63,764 bases of DNA from Archangium sp. (GTDB lineage Bacteria; Myxococcota; Myxococcia; Myxococcales; Myxococcaceae): NCBI GenBank assembly GCA_030681645.1, contig JAUXRX010000045.1, positions 1 through 63,764 of the forward strand. Reading direction: 5' to 3'. Within the stretch, counting starts at the first letter, position 1; every line of letters starts with the position of its first letter. Both the position numbers and the translations under genes were made by a program. Below the pieces are notes generated by a model, which was not told where the DNA came from, searched no databases, and saw only the letters and a program-made list of their open reading frames with translations. Below, piece after piece: positions 44,455-46,655 of this stretch.

Positions 44455-45183
44455 TTGGCCCCACAATCCCCCGACGTGCAACTGAATCACGCCCAGCGGG
44501 AACTCACCGTCAAGATCGTCTATTACGGCCCCGGTCTTTCGGGGAAGACGACCAACCTCCAGATGGTGCACCAGCGGACCAGCCCCGAGGTCCGCGGGCG
44601 GCTGCTGACCGTCGAAACCCACGACGATCGCACGCTCTTCTTCGATCTGCTGCCCGTCTTCTTCAGCACCGCCAACGGCTTCAAGGTGAAGGTGAAGCTG
44701 TTCACCGTGCCCGGCCAGGTGATTCACAACGCAACGCGGCGAATCGTGCTCCAGGGGGCTGACGCGGTCGCCTTCATCGCCGACAGCCGCCGCGCCGCCG
44801 CCGCCGAGAACAACGCCTACTGGAAGAACCTCGTCGAGAACATGAAGGAGAACAACCTCGACCCGGCGCAGGTGCCGGTGGTCATCCAGTACAACAAGCG
44901 CGATCTGCCCGACACGAAGACGGACGCGGAGATCGAAGAGACGCGCAAGAAGGGCAAGGAGCCGGTCGTCGGGGCGATCGCCATTCGGGGCGTGGGGGTG
45001 CTCGAGACGCTCTACGCGGTGCTGCAGTCGGCCTTCCGCAGCCTCGAGGCGCGGGCGGGCCTGACCAAGAACATCGGGCTGGGCGAGAAGGAGTTCCTCA
45101 CCCAGGTCTTCGCCAACATCGACATCAGCGGCACCGAGCTCGAGAAGCTGCTGCCTCCGAGGACACCGGGGGCGCGCCCGTGA
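44455..45183 (+). CDS. MglA-like small Ras-family GTPase
   Basis: [21 protein letters not shown] aligns with MglA [34 protein letters not shown] and [10 protein letters not shown] are conserved. An alternative GTG start lies at ~44476. Confidence 0.85.
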   Translation: [242 protein letters not shown]

Positions 45184-46655
45184 GGCAAGGCGAGTCGGTC
45201 CTCCAGCGCCGCATCTCGCTCGGCGAGATGCTCGACACCGAGTCGTTCACCGAGGTGGTGAAGGGCTTCGTCGAGCTCTACCGGGTGGGCATCAAGGTGT
45301 TCGACGAGAAGGGCGGCAAGCTCGCCGACATCAAGATCGGCAACGGCGACTTCTGCGGCTACGTCTTCAGCTTCCCCGAGGGCCGCCGCCGCTGCACCGC
45401 CACCGTGGGGCGGGTGAAAGACGGCCCGCTGGCGCTCAGCCACGGCGCGCGGTTGCCGGTGCTCGAGCCCGACCTCATTCCCGGGAGCAAGGGCATGCTC
45501 ACCGTGCCCTGCTTCACCGGGCTGCGGTACCTGATCGTGCCCATCATCTGGGAAGGCGATCACATGGGCCGGGTGGTGTTCGGCCCGTTCATGCCGGAGG
45601 ATCTCAAGGACTTCGCGCCCAGGACGCTCACGGAGATCTCCGAGGGCTTCGACGTGGGCAACGCGAAGAGCCTGGTGGAGAAGGTGCGCCGCGCGCCCGA
45701 GGGCACCATCGCCCGGGTGATGCTGCACTTCGGCCAGTTGCTGCAGACGATGTTGTTCGGCGGTCAGAAGATGTTCCTGACCACCCAGCTGCACATCGAG
45801 GCCACGCTCGACAACAACCGCGAGCTCGAGGAACGGAACAAGAAGCTCGAAGACGCGAACACGAGGTTGAAGGAGCTCGACCGCCTCAAGAGCGCGTTCC
45901 TCGCCACGGTGAGCCACGAGCTGCGCACGCCGCTCACCTCGATCATCGGCTACTCCGAGATGCTGGCCGAGGGGCTGGCGGGGCCGCTCAACGGCGAGCA
46001 GGTCGACTACGTGCGCACCATCATGGAGAAGGGCGAGACGCTGCTGAAGTTGATCAGCAGCATCCTGGACATCTCGCAGATCGAAGCGGGCAAGGTGCGC
46101 CTCAACTTCGAGCCGATGGACGCGCTGGAGCTGATCAACGGCTCGCTCTCGAGCCTGCGGCCGCAGGTGCAGAAGAAGGGTGTCGCGCTCGAGGCGAAGC
46201 TGCCGGCGAAGATGCCGATGGTGACGGGCGATCGCGATCGCCTGCGGCAGGTGATCGTCAACCTGCTCACCAACGCGGTGAAGTTCACGCCCAAGGGCGG
46301 CCGGGTGGCGGTGACGCTGACCGAGATCCAGCAGCAGCCCGACCTGAACGCGATGGGCTACCGCATCCTGGTGGAAGACTCGGGCGTGGGAATTCCCGCC
46401 GACCAGTTCGACAAGATCTTCAACAGCTTCTACCAGGTCGATTCTTCCTCGACGCGAGAGTACGGCGGCGCGGGCCTGGGGCTGGCCATCGTGAAGAGCT
46501 TCGTGGAAGGGCACGGCGGCGTGGTGCGAGTCGCGTCCGAGCTGGGGCACGGCTCACGCTTCACGCTGGTGCTGCCAGTGTCACCCTCTTCCCAGACACA
46601 AGTGTTGATCACCCCACCCGTCACCTCGGTCTCGCCCGCTGATGATCGATTTTGA
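45180..46655 (+). CDS. sensor histidine kinase with N-terminal PocR-like sensory domain
   Basis: The PocR-like motif is DFCGYVF...RRRC. The H-box is LATVSHELRTPL, and the HATPase N, G1 (DSGVGI) and G2 (GGAGLGLAI) boxes are present. The GTG overlaps the stop of the GTPase gene (GTGA). Confidence 0.85.
   Translation: MRQGESVLQRRISLGEMLDTESFTEVVKGFVELYRVGIKVFDEKGGKLADIKIGNGDFCGYVFSFPEGRRRCTATVGRVKDGPLALSHGARLPVLEPDLIPGSKGMLTVPCFTGLRYLIVPIIWEGDHMGRVVFGPFMPEDLKDFAPRTLTEISEGFDVGNAKSLVEKVRRAPEGTIARVMLHFGQLLQTMLFGGQKMFLTTQLHIEATLDNNRELEERNKKLEDANTRLKELDRLKSAFLATVSHELRTPLTSIIGYSEMLAEGLAGPLNGEQVDYVRTIMEKGETLLKLISSILDISQIEAGKVRLNFEPMDALELINGSLSSLRPQVQKKGVALEAKLPAKMPMVTGDRDRLRQVIVNLLTNAVKFTPKGGRVAVTLTEIQQQPDLNAMGYRILVEDSGVGIPADQFDKIFNSFYQVDSSSTREYGGAGLGLAIVKSFVEGHGGVVRVASELGHGSRFTLVLPVSPSSQTQVLITPPVTSVSPADDRF

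Follow-up and report, generated by a model that had tools for sequence, protein, structure and literature searches.

The locus described here raises the question of why the gene of a small MglA-like GTPase should overlap the gene of a sensor histidine kinase, with no gene for an MglB partner beside it. Both genes lie in a 63,764-nucleotide contig of Archangium sp. (JAUXRX010000045.1), the whole of which is referred to below as the window. A preliminary description of this DNA had seen in them an uncharacterised link between polarity-type GTPase signalling and two-component signalling. Our results indicated that the GTPase is already known: synteny, length and 74% identity mark it as orthologous to Myxococcus xanthus SofG (MXAN_6703), and hence it is not an uncharacterised MglA. 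The link to the kinase is the new part, and we found no description of it in the searchable literature. According to the work on SofG, the process involved is better described as the placement of type IV pilus ATPases than as polarity-type signalling (PMC4085708, PMC4316618). We consider it reasonably probable that SofG and the kinase interact directly, and that the nucleotide state of SofG would thereby be coupled to a phosphorylation controlling the type IV pilus ATPases.

All three motifs quoted for the GTPase in the preliminary description were present, and the P-loop GPGLSGKT (residues 25-32) and NKRD (residues 147-150) fitted the patterns GxxxxGK(T) and NKxD. The protein could be aligned without gaps to M. 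xanthus MglA (PDB 5ymx, residues 4-193) with E 1.5e-49 and about 50% identity. An arginine finger was found beside the G2 threonine (DRT), where R59 corresponded to R53 of MglA and was invariant in both homolog alignments. The TVPGQ motif occupied residues 84-88, so that Q88 (in the numbering of the 242 amino acid [aa] form) was equivalent to Q82 of MglA and Q61 of Ras. It had been stated earlier that the residue after TVPGQ, a valine, takes the place of the Ras glutamine; a valine does follow the motif, but the reading was out of register, because the last residue of TVPGQ is itself the catalytic glutamine. The argument from that valine to a need for an external GTPase-activating protein (GAP) was therefore unfounded, since the catalytic glutamine and the intrinsic arginine finger are both present.

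A model of the GTPase built with AlphaFold2 (AF2) from an input of 48 homologs had a predicted local distance difference test score (pLDDT) of 83.8 and a predicted template modelling score (pTM) of 0.86. When this model was searched against the PDB, the top 14 matches were all MglA, with template modelling scores (TM) of 0.85-0.87 and E values of about 1e-19, and other small GTPases followed at about 1e-8. Pfam gave a weak Arf/small-GTPase match and NCBIfam gave no specific name for either the GTPase or the kinase. All the features of group-1 MglA proteins that were examined after Wuichet & Sogaard-Andersen 2014 (P-loop, NKxD, arginine finger, glutamine of TVPGQ and MglA fold) were found. Sequence and predicted structure thus place the GTPase in the MglA family, as the first description had it, and its catalytic residues are all present. 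Behind the MglA-like part there is a C-terminal extension of about 45 aa with a conserved core, L..(I/H)GL.E..F, in the alignments; F214 (242-aa numbering) was invariant in the Myxococcota and proteobacterial members. The extension was modelled as ordered helices with a pLDDT of about 90, and no match in the PDB fold search covered it.

Group-1 MglA proteins number only three in M. xanthus DK1622 (Table S2 and text of PMC4316618): MXAN_1925, which is MglA, has 195 aa and adjoins mglB; MXAN_6703, which is SofG, has 239 aa and is an orphan; and MXAN_2693, which has 372 aa and lies near a PATAN gene. The features of the SofG orthologous group, a neighbouring GNAT gene orthologous to MXAN_6704 and the C-terminal extension, were both found in the window; MXAN_6703 alone among the three M. 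xanthus proteins has a length of about 239 aa. At the M. xanthus locus, the GTPase open reading frame (ORF) of 239 aa was 74% identical to the window protein (235-242 aa, depending on the start) and was flanked by the GNAT gene, with two PilT-like ATPase genes beyond it. One of these two had a long disordered N-terminus, matching the published description of MXAN_6705, which together with MXAN_6706 has been reported as a PilT paralog. SofG and the window GTPase also share orphan status, with no MglB nearby, and we found no difference in the protein itself. The loci differ in that the PilT paralogs flank sofG in Myxococcus and are not adjacent to it in the window.

SofG has been known since 2013 as a second Ras-like GTPase in the pilus-dependent motility of Myxococcus (Bulyha et al. 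2013, as summarised in PMC4085708 and PMC4316618). Together with the bactofilin BacP it brings about the polar location of PilB and PilT, the pilus ATPases; it binds a subpolar BacP patch, and its GTPase activity is required (PMC4085708, PMC4316618). MglB does not stimulate SofG, whose GAP is unidentified (PMC4316618, citing Bulyha 2013), the confinement of SofG to one pole is described as unexplained, and these papers name no other regulator of it (PMC4085708, PMC4316618). A kinase whose gene overlaps that of the GTPase in almost all relatives is a concrete candidate, open to test, for SofG's missing regulator or effector.

The kinase encoded by that overlapping gene had intact catalytic motifs. 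The PocR-type domain that had been described at its N-terminus matched Pfam well above the cut-off (70.8 against 23.9 bits; E 1.5e-19, model positions 1-158 of 162), and HisKA and HATPase_c were matched with E 1.8e-21 and 1.1e-30. The H-box was intact, with H246 in SHELRTP, as were the N (NLLTNAVKF), G1 (DSGVGI), F (FNSFY) and G2 (GGAGLGL) boxes, and no transmembrane segment was found in the protein. All 79 of the 79 Myxococcaceae orthologs (L001-L080) ended in (D/E)RF-COOH, which was absent from the other clades; this end looks like a short docking motif. Profile searches with the N-terminal domain returned mostly gene fragments, and those against PDB sequences gave nothing meaningful.

A genome scan with one genome per species gave 80 loci, M. 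xanthus included, and a metagenome scan seeded with SofG-like proteins gave 80 more. In 78 of the 80 genome loci the GTPase and the kinase were detected along with the GNAT gene on the other strand; the remaining two loci, which are short contigs, showed the GTPase and kinase only. The preliminary description had made its proposal depend on the adjacency being kept in relatives, and this was the case within the family and beyond it: the kinase was directly 3' of the GTPase in 75/75 Myxococcaceae loci with enough downstream sequence to be evaluated, and a histidine kinase was directly 3' of SofG-length GTPases in 25 of the 28 distant metagenome loci with at least 1200 nt downstream. The three exceptions comprised two proteins without the C-terminal extension and one locus (L119) in which a PilZ protein follows. 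In contrast, none of nine long MglA-domain proteins had a kinase directly 3' of its gene. Look-ups that started from the kinase N-domain also found the GTPase upstream. A search of 1.8 billion cluster representatives returned SofG-like proteins at 40-61% identity that carried the approximately 45-aa extension which MglA lacks, some of them from metagenome-assembled genomes (MAGs) of Myxococcales and Kofleriaceae. The pair was kept while its surroundings changed, in Myxococcia, Polyangia-like lineages and beta/gamma-proteobacteria with guanine plus cytosine (GC) contents of 38-71%, and the GTPase-kinase core was the sole constant part across the loci compared, the genes 3' of the kinase being variable. 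We read the GTPase and kinase genes as a conserved operon.

The GTGA overlap of the GTPase stop and the kinase start was read in the sequence just as first reported. A start codon at the -4 position, which would allow such an overlap, existed in 98 of 115 loci (72/78 Myxococcaceae and 26/37 other), so that a full overlap is common and not universal; the 4-nt overlap was also annotated by independent gene calls in L163, L164, L165 and L166. Two further arrangements were observed behind SofG-like GTPases: a PilZ-domain protein in the position of the kinase (L119, 5770-6270), and an ETR1_N-GAF-PAS histidine kinase whose gene has an ATGA overlap (L125, 5668-7656).

The kinases fell into three clades. 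Clade (a), with PocR-type kinases, comprised the Myxococcaceae and high-GC, probably Polyangia-like contigs, where the genes of the GTPase and the PocR kinase usually had a peroxiredoxin gene, on the other strand, before them and a ThiL-like gene after them. Clade (b) had a nearly identical catalytic core and a short N-domain (L118, L121, L124, L129). In clade (c), from beta/gamma-proteobacteria, a GTPase of 215-222 aa with arginine finger, TVPGQ and extension preceded a kinase about 410-437 aa long. Whenever sequence farther downstream was available, the next gene encoded a REC-MshEN-T2SSE protein of about 740-830 aa, in other words a PilB-like ATPase bearing a receiver. This order of three genes was found in six metagenome loci (L126, L130, L132, L136, L151, L155) with GC contents of 38-67% and in the isolates Sulfuriferula sp. 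AH1 and Methylomonas sp. SURF-2. The N-domains of clades (b) and (c) matched the PocR-type domain in hhalign with a probability of 96.9% (E 1.5e-10), and they look like a trimmed version of it. Pilus ATPase genes were thus found near the pair in both settings, as PilT paralogs in Myxococcus and as REC-PilB in proteobacteria. Such proteobacterial operons often also had further kinase, receiver and HD-domain genes alongside.

Proteins in which the GTPase and the kinase were joined were also found. P0126 (665 aa, from an AT-rich organism) consisted of a SofG-like GTPase whose extension leads directly into a PocR-like region and then HisKA and HATPase_c, which is the order of the two genes in the window. 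P0158 and P0192 had an MglA-like GTPase fused to GAF and HisKA, the former with HATPase_c as well, and a 787-aa ORF (L160, 4998-7361) combined an MglA-like GTPase with PAS, a kinase ATPase domain and a receiver. The locus L153 was also grouped with such fusions of an MglA/SofG-like GTPase, a sensor domain and a histidine kinase. In a neighbour-joining tree, the GTPases linked to histidine kinases and the fusions formed one group, to which neither M. xanthus MglA nor the long MglA-domain proteins belonged; the members of the group have the C-terminal extension in common.

The absence of an mglB gene nearby, noticed in the first description, was upheld. No Robl_LC7 match was obtained with Pfam among about 37 coding-like ORFs (most, not all, of those in the window, with all neighbours of the pair included), and no Roadblock/LC7 protein was called within 10 kb in two close relatives (L163 and L164; independent gene calls with precomputed Pfam). 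No such gene lay within four genes of the GTPase, the distance taken as indicating MglA-MglB coupling. A tblastn search with an MglB sequence gave no match in the window or the 160 loci, a result of little weight because there was no canonical mglBA locus among them to serve as positive control. These results agree with the published orphan status of SofG. The idea that the kinase N-domain is itself a hidden Roadblock/MglB-like GAP was rejected after hhalign comparisons of two N-domain alignments gave probabilities of 2.4% and 0.2%, which is a weak negative.

From the orthology, domains, motifs, adjacency, fusions and pilus neighbourhood computed here we infer binding, a direction of signalling and a target. 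The GTPase and the kinase would be made in fixed proportion and would bind each other, probably through the C-terminal extension of the former and the N-terminal domain of the latter. Autophosphorylation of H246 would in turn depend on whether SofG carries GTP or GDP, and perhaps also on a small ligand in the PocR pocket, and a receiver protein that acts on the pilus motor would accept the phosphoryl group. In beta/gamma-proteobacteria this receiver would be the one fused to the PilB-like ATPase encoded immediately 3' of the kinase, and in Myxococcaceae it would be encoded elsewhere. A candidate for the cognate response regulator, which the preliminary description had proposed to look for, stands beside the proteobacterial pairs in the form of the REC-MshEN-T2SSE protein.

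Several observations weigh against this proposal. Pfam scans of about 37 coding-like ORFs, most of those in the window, found no receiver domain. PocR domains are usually taken as small-molecule sensors and not as GTPase-binding domains. The AF2 model of the kinase N-terminal domain, made with 18 homologs, reached a pLDDT of 45 and gave no structural support for an interface. The neighbour-joining tree was made without bootstrap and is to be read cautiously, and P0126 is a single sequence in which a frameshift artefact may have joined two genes. Adjacency within the Myxococcaceae alone could reflect inheritance and not selection, and the argument therefore rests on the distant clades. Finally, no paper mentioning MXAN_6702, the presumed ortholog of the kinase, was found in the open-access literature; likewise no link of SofG with a kinase, or of such a GTPase with a receiver-PilB protein, was found in that literature, which does not include the original SofG paper.

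The main rival to the direct partnership with the GTPase as input is the reverse direction, in which the kinase, through its N-terminal domain, would be the missing GAP or guanine nucleotide exchange factor (GEF) of SofG, set by a PocR ligand or by phosphorylation, and the GTPase would be the output. The vacancy left by MglB, which does not stimulate SofG (PMC4316618, citing Bulyha 2013), would be filled in this way; SofG has its own arginine finger and glutamine, so that a GAP need only reposition them, as MglB does for MglA, and the adjacency, overlap and fusions fit this direction equally well. The resemblance of the kinase N-domain to Roadblock/MglB was nevertheless negligible (hhalign probability of only 0.2-2.4%, the weak negative given above), and the receiver-fused pilus ATPase 3' of the proteobacterial kinase is an obvious target other than the GTPase. 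We favour the GTPase as the input of the kinase because these proteobacterial operons supply such a phosphorylation target, and we regard the reverse direction as unlikely, though worth keeping in view.

It is less likely still that the two genes are merely co-expressed, serving the same process without contact, or that their adjacency was inherited without functional meaning. In favour of this reading, other, seemingly unrelated neighbours are also conserved over long distances, as is thiL 3' of the kinase in many lineages. Direct partnership is preferred over co-expression because the adjacency outlasts the other neighbours from Myxococcia to beta/gamma-proteobacteria, because the start/stop overlap is possible in most loci and fusion proteins exist, and because a dedicated kinase N-domain family and a dedicated GTPase extension occur together, with pilus ATPase genes nearby. 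An ordinary MglA polarity switch, with MglB elsewhere in the genome and an irrelevant kinase, shares the roughly 50% identity and the same catalytic residues and is very improbable, since canonical MglA has 195 aa and is coupled to mglB whereas the window protein has the SofG-type extension and the SofG synteny, and MglB is reported not to act on SofG.

A wider form of the proposal, which we put forward tentatively and with somewhat less than even expectation, is that the SofG-type GTPase and the kinase make up a previously undescribed module present in several phyla, wired through a PocR-derived domain and controlling type IV pilus motor ATPases by phosphorylation. If so, the control in proteobacteria would be direct, through the receiver fused to the PilB-like ATPase, and the myxobacterial kinase would be the long-sought regulator or effector of SofG. 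The position of the pair beside receiver-fused PilB-like ATPases suggests an old and general link between a small GTPase, two-component phosphorylation and pilus motors, distinct from both the MglA/MglB switch and the actinobacterial conservon.

With the MglA/MglB switch of M. xanthus and T. thermophilus, the window GTPase shares the fold (TM 0.85-0.87), the P-loop, the arginine finger at the G2 threonine, TVPGQ and NKxD; it differs in that no Roadblock GAP gene accompanies it, its partner gene encodes a histidine kinase, and about 45 additional residues at its C-terminus are predicted to form an ordered module. The conservons (CvnA-D of Streptomyces, Mfp of Mycobacterium) likewise combine an MglA-family GTPase with a histidine kinase, and have no response regulator in the locus. 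However, their GTPases belong to group 2 and lack the arginine finger that the window GTPase has as a group-1 member, their loci need Roadblock (CvnB) and DUF742 (CvnC) proteins, for which the window locus has no gene, and their kinase is membrane-bound, with HAMP and a C-terminal LPxR, in contrast to the soluble PocR kinase ending in DRF. Membership in the conservons was rejected on account of the soluble kinase with its DRF end, the missing Roadblock gene and the arginine finger.

The group 1 Rup systems (PMC4316618) also tie a small Ras-like GTPase to a two-component type of output (kinase or diguanylate cyclase) with a dedicated N-terminal region, but they belong to another GTPase family without the catalytic glutamine, have membrane and OmpA-domain partners and differ in kinase architecture. 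Links of GTPases with kinases have been reported for the conservon and Rup systems; for group-1 MglA only PATAN neighbours were reported, and orphans were set aside (PMC4316618). Compared with the PocR-domain sensors (PF10114; Salmonella PocR), the kinase N-terminus is alike in lying well above the Pfam threshold and differs in that members of its domain family are linked with a GTPase gene, some of them in a shortened form. Known PocR proteins are regarded as sensors of small molecules. A functional analogy is offered by eukaryotic Ras-Raf, where a small GTPase controls a kinase via an N-terminal regulatory domain. There is no homology of the kinases or of the binding domains, the kinases being Ser/Thr and histidine kinases respectively, and the coupling in the present case is only proposed.

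Table 1. Features of the sofG locus and its surroundings in the window
Feature	Positions	Strand	Basis or remark
sofG ortholog, group-1 MglA-family GTPase, 242 aa from TTG 44455	44455-45183	+	motifs, Pfam, MglA alignment, AF2, synteny
C-terminal extension of the GTPase, about residues 195-242	45037-45180	+	alignments and AF2; not in MglA proper
GTGA overlap, kinase start GTG over GTPase stop TGA	45180-45183	+	read in the sequence
Soluble sensor histidine kinase, 491 aa, presumed MXAN_6702 ortholog	45180-46655	+	Pfam PocR, HisKA, HATPase_c
PocR-type N-terminal domain, kinase residues 16-192	45225-45755	+	Pfam PF10114, 70.8 bits
Kinase catalytic core, HisKA residues 237-304 and HATPase_c residues 350-468	45888-46583	+	Pfam
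C-terminal DRF tripeptide of the kinase, behind a variable Pro-rich tail	46644-46652	+	ortholog comparison
GNAT acetyltransferase, MXAN_6704 ortholog, divergent neighbour of sofG	43770-44354	-	Pfam
Divergent intergenic region between GNAT gene and sofG, presumed promoter region	44355-44475	.	gene positions

The closest relatives of the window were Archangium-like Myxococcaceae. Its GC content was about 70%, and the third codon positions reached 0.91 in the GTPase ORF and 0.93 in the kinase ORF, which indicates that both are real coding sequences. The GTPase probably starts at GTG 44476 (MQLNH..., 235 aa) rather than at TTG 44455, because its relatives have 233-239 aa and begin with MQLNH. A simple promoter scan found no match to the sigma-70 consensus in the divergent intergenic region, which is of little weight for a myxobacterium, and a simple scan found no terminator-like hairpin inside or directly after the GTPase-kinase operon. 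The GNAT protein MXAN_6704 has been described as such (PMC4048283), and its published mutants fail to aggregate, to sporulate and to form lipid bodies; a preprint of 2026 based on transposon sequencing (Tn-seq) has them behaving like pilT and frzS mutants. A functional tie between this GNAT and SofG is possible. On the other side of the pair, the window has glgA and an ATP-grasp gene behind the kinase (46716-49397, + strand), and a ThiL-like (AIRS) gene takes that place in many other lineages (L050-L114).

The joint presence of gyrB and recF at 33400-38808 suggests that the window lies near the replication origin. Judged from the locus number of MXAN_6703, sofG would occupy another chromosomal position here than in M. 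xanthus. Between gyrB and recF there was a gene for a degenerate PilT/T2SSE-like ATPase (35934-37355, + strand), with the Walker A lysine replaced (GEPGNGRST) and a Pfam T2SSE match below the cut-off; its identity was 41% to a T2SSE protein at the equivalent position in L164, against 28% to the PilT paralog that resembles MXAN_6705.

Elsewhere in the window, a ribbon-helix-helix gene overlapped a PIN-domain gene (61165-61874, + strand), in an arrangement resembling a toxin-antitoxin module. A 755-aa protein (51087-53354, - strand) had a PKD domain followed by many repeats of the form ...VWAVG...G.ILHWNG..W..., which may form a beta-propeller. Finally, a 770-aa protein (16447-18759, + strand) contained the shoulder domain of the major vault protein and Vault_3 repeat domains, which to our knowledge are uncommon in bacteria.

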